A DNA stretch of 63,927 bases, counting the filler, from Globobulimina sp. (Eukaryota): NCBI GenBank assembly GCA_003354225.1. It is 33 parts of 33 records of this genome, joined end to end, with 100 filler letters (N's around TTAATTAATTAA, not from the genome) between each part and the next. Parts side by side here need not be neighbours in the genome. Positions count along the whole stretch, not along the records: positions 62,089 to 63,927 come from PIVH01011369.1; 32 more parts are not named here. One strand, 5' to 3'. The number at the start of each line of letters is the position of its first letter. The first letter of the stretch is position 1. The notes beneath the pieces were generated by a model. The model made no database searches. It saw only the letters and a list, made by a program, of their open reading frames with translations, and was not told the DNA's origin. Made by a program: the position numbers and the translations under genes. Shown in pieces: positions 15,429 through 63,927 of the stretch.

Positions 15429-15528
15429 NNNNNNNNNNNNNNNNNNNNNNNNNNNNNNNNNNNNNNNNNNNNTTAATTAATTAANNNNNNNNNNNNNNNN
15501 NNNNNNNNNNNNNNNNNNNNNNNNNNNN

Positions 15529-15705
15529 AGGCAATGTCATCGTCGATGTTGGGGCTGTTTAGGGGGCTACACGATTCGCTATTACTGAGGCCGGGGGTAG
15601 CATAGCGACACTCCGTAAAAGCGCCGGTTTGATTGGGAAATCGAGCATAGGCGCCATTGCTGTCAAGCGCGGGCACATTGGCCCAATCAATAACCACGCC
15701 CATAT
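15529..15705 (-). other. GC-rich fragment resembling the end of a bacterial lamin-tail-type domain, in frame with the preceding gene
   Basis: Abrupt GC rise; IDWANVPAL..NGAYARFPNQTGAF...ATPGLSN resembles the SYGRxPDGxG...TPGxxN motif. Confidence 0.45.
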
Positions 15706-17097
15706 GAATCAATTCGAGCATACCCGTAATAAAGGTGAAAATGAGTGAACTAATCATAGCTTTTTGTTGTTTTGTTTTAAAACGTTTAATACCGACAGAT
15801 ACACATAATATTATTTTCAATACGTCAACAACGGATACAATTTGTTCAAACTTTCGAAATACAAATCGAAGTTTTGTTACCCGCTGAGTCCGACAGCATT
15901 TTGGAAAGCAAGAATCTGCATTTTCAAATTTGCTTCGATCATAACAATAACACCAGGTAACAAACAATAAAAAGGTAGTAAAAATATCGCCCACAGCTAT
16001 GATATATAGACACATAATTTCCAACCAAATATCATTACCCATATTTCCCCCATCAGTGTCGGAGGATGTAATAAGTAGTTGGATTATTACAACCAAACTC
16101 ACAAACCTACTGATCATCAGCTCTGCGATATCATGAGTCAACTTCAAATATTCAAGTTTTTGTCTCGAATGCATTACTGACGACGGTGCTAATATTGGAT
16201 ATAGCTCCATCGCTTTGAGAGTGGAGGCATTGACAAATTCTTGAAAGGTGACTGGAAGAGAAAACATGACGAATGTGTTAGTTACACTGTTTTCATGTTG
16301 TTGTTGACTGGTTGCTGCACAACAGTCATGAATAGTAATTATATTATATCCATATTCGTATCCGGTTCGCATTGTACTTTCCACGCAACAGTTGGTTAAT
16401 AAACCACAAATGGCTAAATTAACAATACCCAGACTTTGTAGAATATCATCCAGATTCGTACCTGCAAATGTATCCAATCCATGTTTACCTTTTACAACAT
16501 GCTCCTCTGTTTTTGGTTGCATCGGTTTATGAAAGCGAGCGCCCCAATTTTTACTGCCAAATGCTTCGTTGGTGGCAACATTATATAATACGCCATATCT
16601 ATTTGCGTTTTCTTCATACTCTGCACAATACGTAATGGGCGCATGTATTATATGCATTTTGTGTTTTCTTGCATATTCTAATAATCTTTTTGATTTGGCC
16701 AACATATCTTGCCTTTTTAATTCAGATTTAACAGCTGCATACAAAGCACCATCCTCATGTACAAAGTCGTTTTGATATTCTATAAATAATATAGCTGTAT
16801 CTGATGGATTTAACGAACCCCCAATACTGTTTGTTGTAGGTTCAGTGGATTCAGGTTCTTCGGATATTGCCTCGTTTTCAGTCTTATTTACGAGGTTAAC
16901 GTTGTTTGTCGACAGTAGTTTGTTGAAAGTAGGTTACATACATTTATTATTATGTTATTGTCGTGCTTTGGTTGATCTGCCTCATCGACAGATGTTGTTG
17001 ACACCATATTCTGCTTTGGTGCAGATTCATTATTGTCGTCAATGTGATACACTTGTTCAGCTTCCATATATTCTTTTAGTTTGGTTTCTATTTCCAT
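15700..17097 (-). CDS. Isochorismatase/cysteine hydrolase domain fused to a ~4-TM region; one intron (~16883-16943)
   Basis: AILFIEYQNDF, KGKHGLDTFAGTNLD, GLLTNCCVESTMRTGYEYGY, then hydrophobic helices. Confidence 0.85.
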
Positions 17098-32590: not shown

Positions 32591-32993
32591 TTTGTTCTAA
32601 AAACCATAAGGTCACTCGTCTAGAGCAGGTTTTTTTTTGTCTTTTCCTGTGATGTGCAAGGCTAACTTTGTTAACAAAAAAAAAAGAAACCAAACAAAAA
32701 AACCAAAAAAATACAAAAAATATATTATCGATCATTGTTTACTCCTCCAAAAATTGTTTAGTTGCTTCCTCCATTTGCTTCTCTTTCGCATTTAAGGCAT
32801 CAACTTGTTCCAATGTGACTCTAGTGAAAGTTTGTAATTGCATTGGTGAGAGCTTTGCGTGCTGCAAGGTGAATTTGAGATAACCATATCGTCNNNNNNN
32901 NNNNNNNNNNNNNNNNNNNNNNNNNNNNNNNNNNNNNTTAATTAATTAANNNNNNNNNNNNNNNNNNNNNNNNNNNNNNNNNNNNNNNNNNNN

Positions 32994-34833
32994 AATTATC
33001 AAAACCACTGAAAAGTACGCAATGCCCTCGACAGCCATAATAGTGGTGTTTCTGCCCAATACCTCCCAGTCTGAATACTCGCTAAATGGAAATAATGCAA
33101 TGCCAATACCGATATTGAAGAGAGATTCGCAAAGAATGAACGGCGGGAATAATCTAAAAATTGGCCGTAATATATTTGTTGCAATCTCTTCGGTTTCGTC
33201 CGACATGAAATCCAAACCTAAACAAACTAAACCTAACACCATACCGAGCACCATATATAATATAATGGTTGTAAACTGCGCCTTGGATGGCGAGCTGAAT
33301 AAAAATGACAATAAATACGTAAATGGTGTGGATGACCATAAGAATAAAAATATCACCAATATGAACCATCCGATTGCGTTTTCATACACAACTGAATTAA
33401 AAATATAAATTAAACAAATCACTAAGATGAGTGTAGGCGAACCCACTGTTACATCGGTGATATAGTTTGCTATCCAATATGATGAATACGATACGCCTGA
33501 CACTAATTGTTGGTGCTTACTCATTGAGGCCTTCTCATTGCAAATAAAGAACATTGCTGACGCTGGGATGAAAGAGAAAGCCATAACAAAGTAAATTGAC
33601 TGTTGGAATGCTAACATATACGCTAAAATTCCAGCTTGTGCGTATGTGGGCGGCAATGGATGTGATGTGATGCTAATATTTGGATTTATCGATTCATACT
33701 CATCAAATACATACTGTATCACCCAGTTATTCCATAAATTATTTGTTATTGGTAGACCATGCGACGCTGAGCCATTAATTCCAAAATAAACTCGTTTCTG
33801 TTGATTGGCTGTCATTGAATATGGTAAAAATAAAAAGGCGTTATATATTGGTTTTGTTGCTAGTGACATCTCCAATAACCAATCTTGAAAAGCATACGTT
33901 ATCTTATTCGTGGAGGGATATACGGATATCAATGGCATCAATAACTTACCAAAATAGTCTGTGGTATTCACAGTATATACATCTTCGACAGCTACGCTTA
34001 TATTTTTCAAAAATAATTCGCCATTATCTGGCGCTAAATCGTCATAAACATCATGGAAAGTGTTATTTGAATAGAAATTATCAGGGATTCGCCACCAATC
34101 TTGGCCTTGGGTGGTATTTGGAAATGATTCATTATGAATGGCTGTTGGAATATAAACCTCATCAGCCGACGGATACCAATTTGTCGGATGCAAATCTAAA
34201 GGTGGCGCAGCTTTAATTCTTCCCATTTGAATAGTACCGACACCGAAACCAAACAAAGCAATGATGAATGGACAGAATAAGGTGCAAATCATTGACTGTT
34301 TGTCTCGTAAGCTCCATAAAAATCGTTTATATAAAATGGCATATATGTGAATGAAGAATATCTTTGCTCGGTTCATGTCACTTAACGCAAACTCACCCAA
34401 TTCGACCAATTGTGAGGGATGCATACTTTCCATTAATTCCTCTTTTCCTTCTTTCTCGTCCTCTAATTTTATATTTGAACGGATAGGCTCCATCTCATCA
34501 TGGCCAACTTTGAGAAATACCTCTTCCAACGTCTACATAGTACATTATTTCAATTATTTTACATCTAAAAATATGTCATACAATGCAAAGACTAAACTGT
34601 TACAGAAATACCATATGATTTAATCTTTAAATTCGCTTTGTTGTCGTCAAAAATATTGAATAATGTCGCAAATTGAGCGGTTGATTCGAATGGTAAACGA
34701 TATGTTACCTCCGATCCAGCCAAAGTTACCACTTCTGCTTTAATGACATGATCGAATACAATTTTATCGACATCATCCTTAATATTATGCACATTTTTTT
34801 TAGCCGAATCGTCCACTATATCTAATGAAACAG
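32994..34833 (-). CDS. ABCA-subfamily transporter (regulatory region + second TMD); intron ~34533-34597; partial
   Basis: IKSYGISVT|TLEEVFLKV, EKASMSKHQQLVSGVS..SYWIANY..D, PFTYLLSFLF. Confidence 0.93.
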
Positions 34834-50024: not shown

Positions 50025-50453
50025 CAAATGAAATAATAAATTGTAATATAGCATATATTCTTTTTTTTTCTTTGTTTGAGTATGTTTTTGATTTAAATTT
50101 TTTCAATTTTTTTTTGGTTCCAGTATCCGTTTATTTTTTTTTATATTCCCCGATTGTTCATATCGTTACATATTTTTGTCCTTTTCCTAGTTTCCAAGTC
50201 GCAGTTTATTGTATTTATTAAAGATTAAAATCTTATATAAAGCAGATGGAACGACGTAATCTCTGTTCATCCAAACATCAACAAAAAAACAGTCTTATAG
50301 GAAAGCCCTTATATTGCTACATTTTGAACGGAAAGCGCTATGAGACGCACTTTNNNNNNNNNNNNNNNNNNNNNNNNNNNNNNNNNNNNNNNNNNNNTTA
50401 ATTAATTAANNNNNNNNNNNNNNNNNNNNNNNNNNNNNNNNNNNNNNNNNNNN

Positions 50454-52293
50454 GATGAATGTATTGAATATGAACTGATTGGAATACAATATCAGCCCCA
50501 GACAACACAGTAAATAAACTATTAAAATTATCCGATTGCAGTGCGACCATACAGCCGCTAAACACGATGAAGGCGCAGGATAAAATTAACATAATTCCTG
50601 TTTTATTATTTCTGCTTTTATGCGAATGTATATTTTTATACACTAAATATTTAATTTTCTTTTGTGGTCCCCAACTCATTAACAATTTACATATGAATAA
50701 GTCCAATTTGTTTTGAATTGTTAATGCTATAATACATAAACCACATAACAAGCCCAGAAATATTAAATCGAAAATCGTAAAAAATAATGGAAAATTTTCG
50801 GTAACAACGCAATATGGAATCACATATAAACAAACAAAGCTAACTAATACTAATAATAAGGAGATAACCAATGTGGTGAAATTGATGCCGTATTCATTAT
50901 GGTTTATTATCTCAACAAACACAGCATCCACGGAATTGAAATATAAATTCAACGAATTGTTTAACGTAGTTGCTAATGCTTTGCGCAATGGAACAATGCC
51001 AGAGATTATGGGTATTAATAATCCAAAAACTAACGAAGCGTATAATATTGAACGAAGAGATAACATATATTCAGCCTCAACCGTAACATAATCAGCAATG
51101 ATATTTGATAATGGAATGCTTATCAATGTGGATACGAACAAACCGATTATAATTCCTGGTATACAAAATAACAATGATTTCATGTTTAGAATATAAATGA
51201 GAGATTTTTTCATCATTCCAATACTGCGTAACACGCCACATTCGAATGTCTTATTTTCTACATCAATAATCATCAAACAATATATTATGATACAGGATAA
51301 AATGCCAATTATCACAGTCATTGAGGTTGTAATTGAATTTAATAAAATCTTCAAAAAACTCAAAGCTTGCATTACTTTTAATAATGGCGCATTTACTGTG
51401 GATGACAAATCATTTGTTGTCAGCATTAATTTACTGCCAAAATTAGATATTTCAGTTCGTATTTGATTATAGCTTTTCTGATAAATATTTAATCTGTTTT
51501 TAGCATTTACAATTGTAATCTGTGCGAAATTATTAATTTTAAACTTTGATAACAATCCACTAATTTTATTATGTTGATCTGGATTGGCTTCATGTTCACT
51601 ATCGACAGCAATAGAAGCTTCAATGAATAATGATACTATATTTGCAATATCATATTCTTCGTCATTTGAGTCAAAAGCTGTATAATTTTGGATTATATAA
51701 TTTATTATTTCTAAATACATTGATATTTTATCTAAATTACCGCCTAAACTGTTTTGTATATAATTTTCTACGAATTTAGATTCAATCAACATAACACCAC
51801 CGAGTTCTTGACTCCATTTCCCATCTGGCTCATTTATGATATCTTTTACAACAAAGTCTAAATTGAAATTAAAATTACTTAATGTGGCAATCAGTAAAAT
51901 CGATCTTATTTCATCAATGCTCAATGTTTTACCTCGAATGGTTTCTAATGCATTTAACATATTCTCTTTCTCGTTATTCTCATCGATTTGTAATACAAAC
52001 CATGGTATTTGCTCGAGTGTAGCCATTGTTATATTTGTAATTGTGTCATTTACATAGACTTTTTGATCCCATTCATACGGAAAATTACATTCCAATTCAA
52101 CAATAAATTTGAATTGAACCTCTTTGTTATCGTCGTACAATGGACATTGTTCAAATTGTGTATAATTTACATACTTTGACAAATCATCAATAACACATTC
52201 ATACTTTCCGATACATTCATCGTATCCATCTTGTGTCATATTTTGATAACAATATCTGTCATTTAATACAACTATATCCTCTCCGTTAAAATT
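50454..52293 (-). CDS. FtsX/MacB-like permease domain protein (large protist type); partial
   Basis: DVENKTFECGVLRSIGM FtsX motif, flanking TMs, KNIHSHKSRNNKT. Confidence 0.85.
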
Positions 52294-59794: not shown

Positions 59795-62090
59795 CATTTG
59801 TGAATTTGGATTTTTGTGTTTGTTTATTCTTTATATGTTTATTGTAACGATGGTGATTTCTTTCATGTATAATGATTGTAATCTTGCTGTGATTTCATGT
59901 ATTTTTTCGATGAATTAATCTAACTTCGTTGTTGAGTTAAGATTGAATTGACTTTTTAGGCTTAAACTTCTAAACACTTCTTTTGTGATTGGCAAGGTTT
60001 TTGGGTTAGCTAGAGTGGTTTTCAACTTTGAATACTAGGATTCGAAACCNNNNNNNNNNNNNNNNNNNNNNNNNNNNNNNNNNNNNNNNNNNNTTAATTA
60101 ATTAANNNNNNNNNNNNNNNNNNNNNNNNNNNNNNNNNNNNNNNNNNNNACTTGATAAAGAGACACGTACTTGAGAACTTTCAATGTTAAAATATAGAGC
60201 CTGTTCAGCTCCAATCGGTCTATTTACTGTAACCGAATGCCATTTGTTCCTATATTTTGATAATGTTGTAACTAATTTAGCACATTTTCCATCATCAGCA
60301 TTACATCAGCACTTTTACCATCTTCTACAAATCGAAACAGTGGGTTGTTTGACATGTTTGGAAACAAGCCGGTTATCAGCCTATCTGAAATGAAAAAATT
60401 AGTATTATAAAACAGATTATTTAACTTTCCATCTTTAACTCTTGTCAATACGGCCATATTTGAGACTTAACATATAAATACCGGTTTATTATTATATTCG
60501 GCGCTGTGATTTCTACTTCGCTGTGTGTAATAGAGTAGTTGGATTGAAACGTTATTGACCGAAATTGGCCATGTACAGTTAAGGACGTTTGAATTAATAA
60601 AATTTGGAAATAAGGCAACCTTCATTATCGATACAAATCGATATCGACACCTATATCGTCTTTATGTAGGAATCGGGGTAAAATATAATAGCAGAATTTA
60701 GAAATTATAGTTCTAAAATATAAACGAATCGCTGAGGAATTGCAAACATTGTGTGAAAATGAGGTCTTTAATCTTACTATCGTGCAACATTATTCAGCAT
60801 TTCATAGCTGATCGGTGCGCTTAGTGCTACAAGTAGCGCGTTAATAATGTTGTTGTTATATATAATACCTTTAAATGTTCTGTTCAATAATATTCTTTGA
60901 ATTCGTTAATGGCGCCAATAGTTGGCTATTCTTTGAAAATTACAATTTTTGACTGAAACAGTGGATATGCAAACAATGTTTGGTCTAGTTCAATTAGTTT
61001 AGTAAGCCTAATCGTTTGAAAATAGGAGAAGGGCGTAATCGTTATACCTTTTTTGACGGGTTAAAACCAGCCGTATCCAGCTAAGAATGGGTGTGATGAA
61101 ACATATACCAAACTGGCCACCGATAACCAGTAATGTTGCATTATAATTATTTAACTAGACATCTTGCATTATTGCCTATTCAGGCGAGTGTACTCTACGA
61201 GTGAATAAGCATAATTTTTACTTTATTATCTTGGGGGTGCGGTTCGTGCTACATATCTACTTATACATTTGGTGATTGAGTGTTTGTTTGTTTGCGGATT
61301 TGTCTTCATAATGTTTGAGAAAACTGTCGGACGGCTCGGATTGGTTGATGGCTCGTTGGATAGCTGATCGAACTTTCCCACTTTCCCTATGTTACAGTAT
61401 AGGGGTAGAGTCTGCGGTCTCGAAGCTCTCAGAGGTATTAAAAAAAGGGCTCCGAAATTCAATTTCACTCCATAAGGTGGTCAATTTTACTCAAACTTTT
61501 TTTCACAAAAATTGGTATAACTCTCCGAAGAATCCTCCGGTAAACAGCTTTTTATCACAATACATCCATATTCGAGACTTCGTTACTAGTATATACGGTT
61601 TAATATAATCGGTCAGCATGATTCGTGTTCCATATTTGGGTAATACTGTTTGATCGTATACATTTGACTTAATAAATGAAAACATAAAACTGTTTGCAGT
61701 GGGCTGGGGTTAAAAATCGAGGTTAAATGCTGATCAGTAAACACATATTCCCTAAATATAATCTACTTATCACCTAATTAACATATTACCCTTTGGTTTT
61801 ACCCTCACCATAATGTCGTCGCAGACCGTGTACAAATTATAGGCCTAATTTCACCCTCGCAATTCTGACGTCGCAGATCGTGTGCTTAGCATTGACGGTG
61901 CGTGTGTTCCCCCGACAATTTGAAATCACGGACAAATAACGAGGCAAAAACACCTTACTTCTTCGCTTCTGTACACATTACTAGAACTNNNNNNNNNNNN
62001 NNNNNNNNNNNNNNNNNNNNNNNNNNNNNNNNTTAATTAATTAANNNNNNNNNNNNNNNNNNNNNNNNNNNNNNNNNNNNNNNNNNNNCG

Positions 62091-63927
62091 TATTTAGAAT
62101 ATTTATCTAATACGCCAGCTTTATTGTTATTTAATGTAAAATGTGATGAAAATGGAATTGTTTATATTGATAAAGATTTAGTGAATAAAAATCATTTATT
62201 TTTTACCATTTGTGCTGTCAATAAAGAAACATTCAGCATTAAAAATCATTTATTATCCAATAAGCAAATGAGTAATGAAATGGATATTGATACAAAAGAG
62301 GAAGAAAAGGGAAACTTAAATTTGTGCGCTCCATTTGATTATATTGATACCCGTTTATTTCCAGGATTTGATGGTACAAAACATTTTACTGAACAACGAG
62401 AGATATCATTGATTTGTAATAAAAATAATGAAGTTATCATCCCAAACTATAAACAATCGCAAGTTGAAATATATTCATCTCTTAACAGTGTGTTTGAATT
62501 ATATTCGACGTTAAGTAATAACAAAACTTTGGAAGAATTTTCATTTTTATTTGATTCCAATTGGAAGAATTTGCAAAATCAGCAGAAATTAGAAAAAATC
62601 GATAAATATTTATGCCATGAAATGCATTTTTTTTTATATTGCAATGATAAAACATTTTTCGATGAAATAATTAAACCATTTATTAACAATAAAATGGAGA
62701 AAACCTTTATGGATCATTGGTTATTGGGTGATAAAGAAATATTATTTATGCATTACAGTAATTTTAATACCATCAATGCGTTGAATACATTTGAAAAAAT
62801 ATTGTTAGGATTTGCTTTCAAGAGCGATTCAAATAATGAGAAATATAAAATAATATACAAACAAATGTATAATTATTTCAAAGATAAACAGAAATCTTTA
62901 AAAATATCACCCAAACAACTAAAGAAATTATTTAAAACAGCATTAGCGGATAGAGACTATTTATCAAACACACCACAATCACACAAACACAAACATGCAA
63001 GAAACAGAGATAGAGATAGAGACGAACCAAACATACGAAATCGAAGAAGGAATATCAATATCAACGACATGCAATCACAAAGGTACAATAGGTCCCGTTC
63101 CAGGTCCCACTCCAGGTCAAGGTCTCCTGCCTATTCCACATCAAAAGGCCGACATCAAAGCTCAACACGGTTCCGGACCAGACAAACCGCGCGGAAATCA
63201 ACAGGTGGTAAGGCTCCAAGACGCTCATTGGAGATGAAAGGATCGCGGGCATATTCAGTTACGTCACCTATGTATTCACCCACCAGTCCCACCTATTCGC
63301 CAACGAGCCCCACCTATTCACCCACATCACCTACATATCCACCTACATCGGGAAAGGGAGCACGTATACGCAGTCGTAGTAGAAATAGAAACGATTTTGA
63401 TGGTGGTGATAGAATGGAGGAATGTGATGATGCGTCTGATGAATGGAGGACTGTACAGGAATGTGCAATTGTTGATGATTGTAGTTATCGTGAACAATTA
63501 TCAGAGAAAGCAATATTTGACGACTTATCAGCAACAAAGGAATATCAAGAAACTGGATATTATAAAACAGCAATACATGAAAAGAACCATTTTAATTTGA
63601 TCAAAGATAATAAGTTTTGGTGTGACTGGGCTTTGTATTTATTGAATGATGAAATGGATATCTGTTCCACCTCCTTTTTGTCCAAACATTTTTTTATGGC
63701 AACCAATAGTTTTAGTGAAATGATGATGAGTTTAAGCATTCTGAATTTACAGATTGGTAACGATGATAATAAGAATATTCATAAAGAGGTCAATAAGAAT
63801 ATTCATAATAAGAATGTTGGCAATAGTTCAGAAATGATATTATCCTCAAATGTTCCCTGTATTATATTTTCCAAACAATTGAAAGAAACTGTGATTTCTG
63901 AAGAAAATATTATTAATGTGGTGGTGA
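62091..63927 (+). CDS. Internal part of a very large protein with an RS / histone-H3-tail / Pol II-CTD-like insert
   Basis: Frame from 62091 has no stop to the window end (~612 codons); ordered-looking blocks [15 protein letters not shown]...[19 protein letters not shown] and [33 protein letters not shown]. Confidence 0.9.

Follow-up and report, generated by a model that had tools for sequence, protein, structure and literature searches.

How did a large protein that is not a histone come to carry, in one reading frame, a copy-like stretch of the histone H3 tail, heptads of the RNA polymerase II C-terminal domain (CTD) and runs of arginine-serine (RS) dipeptides, and does it use them? The question is raised by the last contig (62090-63927, 1838 bases) of a 63,927-base stretch of DNA from Globobulimina sp. 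(assembly GCA_003354225.1), hereafter called the window, in which the three motifs lie together at 63090-63390. An earlier note, made from the sequence alone, had described this cassette and proposed that it serves as a combined decoy or scaffold for nuclear enzymes. The observation is confirmed: the frame running open from 62091 to 63927 and the coordinates of the cassette proved exact on translation, and the RS, H3-tail and heptad blocks are all there as described. The interpretation is partly supported. We tentatively favour another reading, in which a genuine in-frame insert in a variable disordered linker would have been copied from the organism's own H3 and RPB1 DNA and retained as a cluster of nuclear import and docking motifs.

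The cassette in the contig and in independent data

The cassette reads in frame on the + strand as RS block 1 (63090-63128, residues 334-346, 13 residues), a 15-residue spacer (63129-63173), the H3-tail look-alike (63174-63248, residues 362-386), five CTD-type heptads (63252-63356, residues 388-422) in the order YSVTSPM, three YSPTSPT and YPPTSGK, and RS block 2, RIRSRSR (63363-63383). From 63090 to 63390 the cassette frame contains no stop, whereas each of the other five frames contains 1 to 10. The GC content of the cassette is 44-53% as compared to 21-30% in the flanks, and its GC content at third codon positions (GC3) is 0.43 against 0.23 and 0.29. No direct repeat that would correspond to a target-site duplication was found to flank the insert, the repeats detected being internal only.

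A stretch of 34 residues containing the H3 piece was compared with PDB sequences using phmmer. The best E-value was 8e-07, and the best 60 of the 137 matches were histone H3 tails only. The alignment with H3 residues 2-26 bears out the match first read by eye: 18 of 25 residues are identical, with Q5-R17 unbroken; K9, S10, T11, K14 and K23 are unchanged, while Arg replaces K4 and K18. The further altered positions are Q19, A21, T22, A24 and A25. All seven departures from H3 fall outside Q5-R17 (the chance of this is 0.0016 for the fixed run and does not exceed 0.02 when all 13 possible runs are allowed); in other words, divergence has reached 7 of the 12 outer positions and none of the 13 core residues. 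A degenerate DNA pattern built on 10 residues of the H3 piece matched once in the window and not at all in 100 shuffles. A Pfam scan of the 612 residues encoded by the contig detected no histone domain (PF00125), and the heptads follow directly after the H3-like stretch. As in a histone mimic, an H3-tail-like motif is located in a predicted disordered region of a protein without a histone fold.

Three of the heptads are perfect YSPTSPT and two are degenerate (YSVTSPM and YPPTSGK). Their DNA forms an internal repeat (D1) with a TRF period of 21 and 81% matches, in which the repeats differ at synonymous sites, and a heptad DNA pattern gave three matches in the window, all at the cassette. The Pfam CTD model PF05001 scored 14.8 bits on the heptads, below its cutoff of 20.3, and the scan of the 612 residues revealed none of the RPB1 polymerase domains (PF04997, PF00623, PF04983 and others). 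The earlier note had taken the synonymous codon differences between heptads as an argument for selection on the protein. These differences are present, but they are weak evidence for selection because the repeats of a real CTD array, such as the one that matches here at 90% or more, differ likewise.

Arginine-serine dipeptides number six in block 1 (HS included) and three in block 2. The suggestion that the RS run is a piece of an SR splicing factor is not supported for block 1, which looks like the product of local 12-nt slippage rather than a borrowed segment (TRF period 12, 2.4 copies, 88% matches, GC3 of 0.65) and probably grew in place in this way. No RNA recognition motif (RRM) was found in the 612-residue fragment, the remaining protein being off the contig. 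Just after RS block 1, the SP-A-YS DNA at 63125-63136 repeats the SP-T-YS junction of the heptads at 63287-63298 with 83% identity (repeat D4). The first codons of the spacer could accordingly be a decayed heptad, and an older run of heptads may have been the place where the H3 piece was inserted.

The cassette is also seen directly in other data. Contigs from four public runs (X1, X2, X6 and X7, belonging to studies P1, P2 and P3) were placed on the window at a likeness of at least 90%. In X1 (study P1), contigs span 62978-63229 without any difference and 63260-63615 with a single one; this run is possibly the window's own source and is not counted as independent. X2 (study P2, of a different year and label) covers 62906-63118 with one difference and 63089-63191 with none, and its 752-base contig covers 63168-63927 with 12 substitutions and an in-frame gap of 21 nt. 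A more diverged version comes from study P3, where a 552-base contig of X7 spans 63000-63518 with 34 substitutions (about 93% identity) and contains the whole cassette in frame; further contigs of this version cover 62946-63258 (X6) and 63234-63386. Since bridging contigs are present in three studies, both junctions and the order RS-H3-heptads are real.

Two versions of 63089-63191 occur in X2. One is identical to the window and the other has four differences (63119, 63139, 63150 and 63167), the same four being found in X6 and X7; the two versions are either alleles or two gene copies. The 21-nt in-frame deletion of X2, placed at 63792 (about 63769-63808), lies in a region of 12-nt repeats encoding NKNIH.. 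in the C-terminal block, and represents a length polymorphism at a second low-complexity spot.

The listed indels measure 3, 6, 6, 3 and 21 nt or are compensated nearby (+1/-1 at 63432/63435; -2/-4 at 63577/63580). Among the listed differences between the 93% version and the window, 8 codons of the cassette (63090-63390) carry synonymous changes and 5 carry replacements. RS block 1 has two synonymous changes and no replacement, the spacer at 63129-63173 two and three, the H3 piece two and one (R378Q), and the heptads two and one (G421P, giving YPPTSPK). By comparison, the low-complexity stretch immediately upstream (63000-63089) shows no synonymous change and five replacements (Fisher p = 0.036 for cassette against upstream stretch), and a 6-nt insertion is listed within 62970-63089.

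The host protein and its linker

The protein that carries the cassette belongs to a family of very large proteins. A phmmer search against 1.84 billion cluster representatives returned 1608 matches at E ≤0.001, 94 of them at E ≤1e-30. The top two (E 3.8e-97 over query residues 2-612 and 2e-90 over residues 2-608) indicate that both conserved blocks around the cassette are homologous to those of the family, whose members are mostly about 2100-2450 residues long (2050-2500 residues for most full-length matches). The closest named relatives are foraminifera. Transcriptome proteins of Bolivina argentea and Nonionella stella (EukProt) are 39-45% identical, two of them spanning the whole query, a 222-residue Nonionella fragment reaches 69% identity, and the Reticulomyxa filosa proteins ETO22119.1 and ETO31836.1 (RFI_15081 / RFI_05282-like) share 42%; another member, P0020, aligns to residues 445-612 with 57% identity. 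Overall, the flanks are 39-69% identical to foraminiferal members and 24-30% identical to nameless members of about 2100 residues. Look-alike clusters in the Atlas are labelled Eukaryota, Verrucomicrobiota and Planctomycetota. A resemblance to very large proteins of Planctomycetes and protists, first put forward in the earlier note, thus agrees with the searches, with foraminifera as the best matches. Full-length family members gave no match in Pfam, NCBIfam or PDB sequences.

An AlphaFold2 model, built on an alignment of 42 sequences, predicts the flanks with confidence (238 residues with a predicted local distance difference test score, pLDDT, of at least 90). The N-terminal block (62091-62969, residues 1-293) is made of beta strands followed by a helical bundle; homologues align to residues 2-293, and pLDDT is mostly 86-98 over residues 91-290. 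The C-terminal block (63480-63927) contains the motifs TKEYQE..YY, FW.D and FLSK, has pLDDT of 81-97 over residues 491-560 and runs off the contig end. Between them, the 170 residues 294-463 have pLDDT below 50 and are predicted to be disordered, and it is within this linker that the cassette is located. The linker begins at 62970-63089, where pLDDT drops from residue 294 onwards, with a basic, low-complexity sequence of HKHKH, RDRDRD and RNRRRN runs, and it ends at 63384-63479 with an acidic segment that reaches residue 463 and is acidic in homologues too. The ordered-looking blocks noticed earlier on either side of the cassette therefore have their counterpart in the model, mostly at pLDDT of 90 or more.

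Foldseek comparison of the flanks with the PDB returned 0 matches at E ≤0.001. We also considered an alpha-2-macroglobulin / C5 fold, suggested by a wide VIA-align search, and rejected it: Z was 5.0-5.2, with a best overall Z of 6.7, below the noise level of the tool for helical models. In that comparison, residues ~96-608 of the P0001 model aligned with alpha-2-macroglobulin / complement C5 over 249 residues with an rmsd of 9.6-9.9, a lead that stays below noise. For this reason, no fold is assigned to the flanks.

The linker varies widely among homologues in both length and composition, a point that the earlier note had proposed to check. Using LF.TAL as upstream anchor and TKEY.E as downstream anchor, 75 of 152 sequences could be measured by this simple pattern; the linker is 68 to 453 residues long (median 138), these lengths being approximate because the pattern took an anchor too far upstream in several sequences. 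One family member, P0018, carries a complete ubiquitin domain at the same linker site (PF00240, 93 bits, residues 1536-1607). This domain, at residues 1534-1607 of P0018, makes the linker a place that collects foreign coding modules.

The cassette itself is absent from the other family members. None of 151 other family proteins contains ARKS[TA]GG, GGKAPR or YSP[TS]SP; bare ARKS occurs in four, SP[TS]SP in one and an RS run in one. Recurrence among homologues, for which the earlier note had also proposed to look, thus amounts to 0 of 151, and the cassette was seen again only in the near-identical and 93% identical versions. A scan of JGI metagenomes with the N-terminal flank gave three loci at 38-49% identity and no orthologue. 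When residues 325-440 were searched against 5.8 billion clusters, proteins of 'near' length gave 516 matches from 2400 candidates and 'longer' proteins 1754 matches from 5081 candidates; the best 120 in each case were all PF05001 proteins, with coverage of at most 69% and 66%, respectively. Since RPB1 flooded these searches, they argue only weakly against the presence of the cassette in other proteins. The H3-like 41-mer alone, searched among proteins of 336-1071 residues, gave 15 candidates and a single match, P0393, which was discarded as a second carrier as it has a real histone fold. An Atlas search with the cassette produced no usable match. Among the papers listed by literature searches on histone mimicry, on foraminiferal H3 with RNA polymerase II heptads and on templated insertions, none describes such a cassette; those listed by the second search did not deal with foraminifera, and those on templated insertions concerned genome editing and repair only.

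The window as a whole is a pseudo-molecule. Runs of exactly 44 N occur in it 66 times, as 33 pairs that each enclose TTAATTAATTAA and follow one another at about 1.94 kb (for example 1842-1885 / 1898-1941, up to 61989-62032 / 62045-62088). The window consists of about 33 contigs of 1838-1841 bases each in descending length, with six-frame stop linkers between them. As the contigs are artificially joined, adjacent genes of the window are not genomic neighbours. The joiner N44-TTAATTAATTAA-N44 at 61989-62088 (no strand) marks the start of the separate 1838-base contig, and the frame begins at 62091 only because this joiner ends at 62088. The translation of 62091-63927 gives 612 residues with zero stops; given a contig of 1838 bases, a frame open from end to end means a fragment of a much longer gene. 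The overall GC content of the window is 27-39%. Long open reading frames on other contigs match eukaryotic families (G-protein alpha, TRAPPC8 Ig-like, TLDc, ankyrin and ABC-2 transporter). Also AT-rich are the contigs with an FtsX-like permease C-terminal domain (50398-52239, - strand), an ABC-2 transporter (32946-34529, - strand) and an isochorismatase (15473-16744, - strand).

Origin and possible function of the insert

Candidate sources for both borrowed pieces are present in the same samples. A contig of X6 matches 63182-63221 at 90% or more. Past the match, it continues with ATG GCA AGA ACA AA.. upstream and AAA CAA TTA GCA ACC AAA GCA downstream, and reads as the start of a true H3 gene (M-A-R-T-K...K-Q-L-A-T-K-A). 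Short contigs with a depth of 222-507, as compared to 4-12 for the cassette gene, match 63291-63338 at 90% or more. The heptad contig of X2 extends on both sides as YSPTSP heptads with T, A or Q at position 7, and the high-depth contigs would look like a collapsed RPB1 CTD array. Over about 40 nt, each piece therefore shares at least 90% identity with coding DNA of the H3 or CTD type, respectively, in the same samples, from which we infer that both fragments were copied at the DNA level into the RS/RD-rich linker.

According to the reading that we favour, the H3-like piece would be a DNA copy of the 5' end of the organism's own histone H3 gene and the heptads a DNA copy from its own RPB1 CTD array. 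The linker that received both copies would already have contained many Arg-Ser and Arg-Asp runs, and RS block 1 would have expanded there by local 12-nt slippage. The patch would then have been retained as protein, providing the giant protein with a cluster of short linear motifs that function as addresses of nuclear proteins. A bipartite import signal of the H3(1-28) type would be intact, with a small residue, K14, a small residue, 8 residues and K23; residues 373-383 indeed follow the consensus small-K-small-(X)6 or more-K, with G-K-A at K14. The RS runs could act as a second import signal or as a speckle signal, and the heptads and the ARKS core as docking or phosphorylation sites common to the chromatin and transcription machinery. 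RS runs direct the import of SR proteins and their targeting to speckles; docking and phosphorylation take place at CTD heptads and at ARKS. A role in nuclear import or targeting would fit the kept residues at least as well as a decoy or scaffold does, and is simpler. The DNA-copy origin, the selection and above all the function are what we infer here.

It is also quite possible, if a little less so, that the cassette is a neutral passenger, H3 and RPB1 CTD stretches having been pasted during break repair into a tolerant linker to give a harmless, young and functionless insert. The linker, which is hypervariable in length and composition, houses a ubiquitin domain in P0018, 151 relatives lack the cassette, and the GC and GC3 of the insert are still unlike those of the flanks, as for a recent arrival. 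The closest versions have diverged by only 0-7%, so the evidence for retention spans a short time. Several features are nevertheless less expected from a passenger. The H3 and heptad pieces both run in the sense direction and keep the frame; the source of each is a nuclear tail motif, and the pair is set inside RS runs. In addition, the H3 piece has changed at 7 of its 12 outer positions around an intact 13-residue core, and synonymous changes exceed replacements in the cassette but not in the stretch just upstream.

The decoy or scaffold of the earlier note, in which the cassette would soak up or assemble H3K9/S10 writers and readers, CTD kinases and phosphatases, and SR kinases, and so regulate them or gather them on the giant protein, appears unlikely to us. 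ARKS is present with K9, S10, T11 and K14 intact, together with three perfect heptads and RS runs within 100 residues, and histone mimicry through short H3-like motifs in disordered tails is established (PMC6028506). However, a single 25-residue tail and five heptads on a giant protein of probably low abundance would make a weak sponge against nucleosomal H3 and a full CTD, and the rest of the family works without this insert.

An in-frame intron or another untranslated segment, which would place the cassette outside the mature protein, is very improbable. A GT is present at 63085-63086 after AAG, the composition is sharply unlike that of the flanking exon sequence and no run is confirmed as RNA. 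Against this, the GC content of the cassette lies above that of its coding flanks, whereas introns of AT-rich genomes are usually AT-rich; the segment is open only in the frame of the protein and encodes exact protein motifs, its indels are in frame, and the 93% version shows a synonymous excess. Finally, an assembly or amplification chimera of the host gene with H3 and RPB1 reads, the artefact that the earlier note wished to see checked, is hardly credible and can be considered as ruled out: it could be suspected from the shortness of the contig, the strong fragmentation of the assembly and the likeness (90% or more) of cassette segments to true H3 and heptad-array contigs, but the junctions are bridged by contigs in three studies, including a version with 34 substitutions and the same order and frame, and the H3 piece, with 7 of its 25 residues unlike those of H3, is not a read of the H3 gene.

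Several points weigh against retention as a nuclear import and docking cluster. Not every H3 site is preserved, Arg having taken the place of K4 and K18 here and Gln that of K18 in the 93% version. A 90% match over 40 nt encoding 13 identical residues could partly reflect shared codon bias, and the H3 and heptad contigs could stem from another organism in the same sample. X6 and X7 are RNA runs by guess only, and the substitution counts are small, with 22 of the 34 X7 differences listed. The fold searches of the host protein gave nothing above noise. Moreover, as 151 relatives lack the cassette, the family works without it.

Whatever the role of the cassette, an unrelated giant protein carries, next to CTD heptads and RS runs, a 25-residue copy of the H3 tail with a perfect 13-residue core, and this is seen in three data sets. 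If functional, the cassette would amount to a natural transplant experiment, in which the codes of nuclear tails were moved to a different protein. It would also show cleanly how new linear motifs can arise when gene fragments are pasted into a disordered linker, and would offer a first clue to where the members of a large uncharacterised protein family are located and how they are regulated. If neutral, it still documents, like the ubiquitin domain in another member, a linker that collects coding fragments. A stronger proposal, doubtful at present, is that, in a free-living protist, fragments of the H3 gene and of the RNA polymerase II CTD of the same organism were domesticated between RS runs as a composite 'nuclear tail' module on a giant conserved protein, which would be imported, phosphorylated, methylated and read by the chromatin and transcription machinery. 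Were it true, the cassette would be a cellular histone-plus-CTD mimic derived from gene copies, and far longer than any described mimic.

Comparison with known systems

Described histone mimics are about 4-6 residues long and occur mostly in viral or chromatin proteins; G9a and LIG1 are among the cellular proteins with H3K9-like motifs. Such motifs are also reported for SETDB1 and NOP16. Influenza NS1 226-ARSK-229 is a histone mimic, and the core of a short linear motif is put at 2-5 residues (PMC6028506). The Globobulimina cassette resembles these mimics in having an H3-tail-like sequence with an ARKS core in a disordered part of a protein without a histone fold. It differs from them by its extent (25 residues aligned, 13 identical in a row), by its apparent origin as a copy of an H3 gene rather than by convergence, by its internal instead of terminal position, by its association with CTD heptads and RS runs, and by its host, an unrelated giant protist protein. 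Binding or modification by the writers or readers of the histone, with an effect on their function, is part of what defines a mimic and is putative for the cassette.

H3 residues 1-28 are a defined import signal, of which Kap123 binds K14 and K23, each in a pocket of its own, the consensus being small-K-small-(X)6 or more-K (PMC5677370). The cassette covers H3 2-26, and its G13-K14-A15, 8 residues and K23 fit this consensus. In contrast to the H3 signal, it lies inside a giant non-histone protein and is changed at K18, Q19, A21, T22, A24 and A25. Importin-4 is also a reader of the H3(1-28) import signal.

With the RPB1 CTD, the cassette shares tandem heptads with Y1, S2, P3, T4, S5 and P6. Unlike RPB1, it has only five of them, two being degenerate, with a PF05001 score of 14.8 against 20.3 and no polymerase domains. 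The runs of Arg-Ser dipeptides recall the RS domains of SR factors, but they are short, there is no RRM in the fragment and the first run is slippage-like. With its own giant-protein family, the host protein has in common both homologous flanks and a variable linker at the same place, and it is distinguished from the 151 other members by carrying the cassette. As the defining domains are absent from the 612 residues, the host protein is not a member of the H3, RPB1 or SR families. Motif mimicry in a disordered linker is already known; here, it was probably made by the capture of fragments of the host's own genes.

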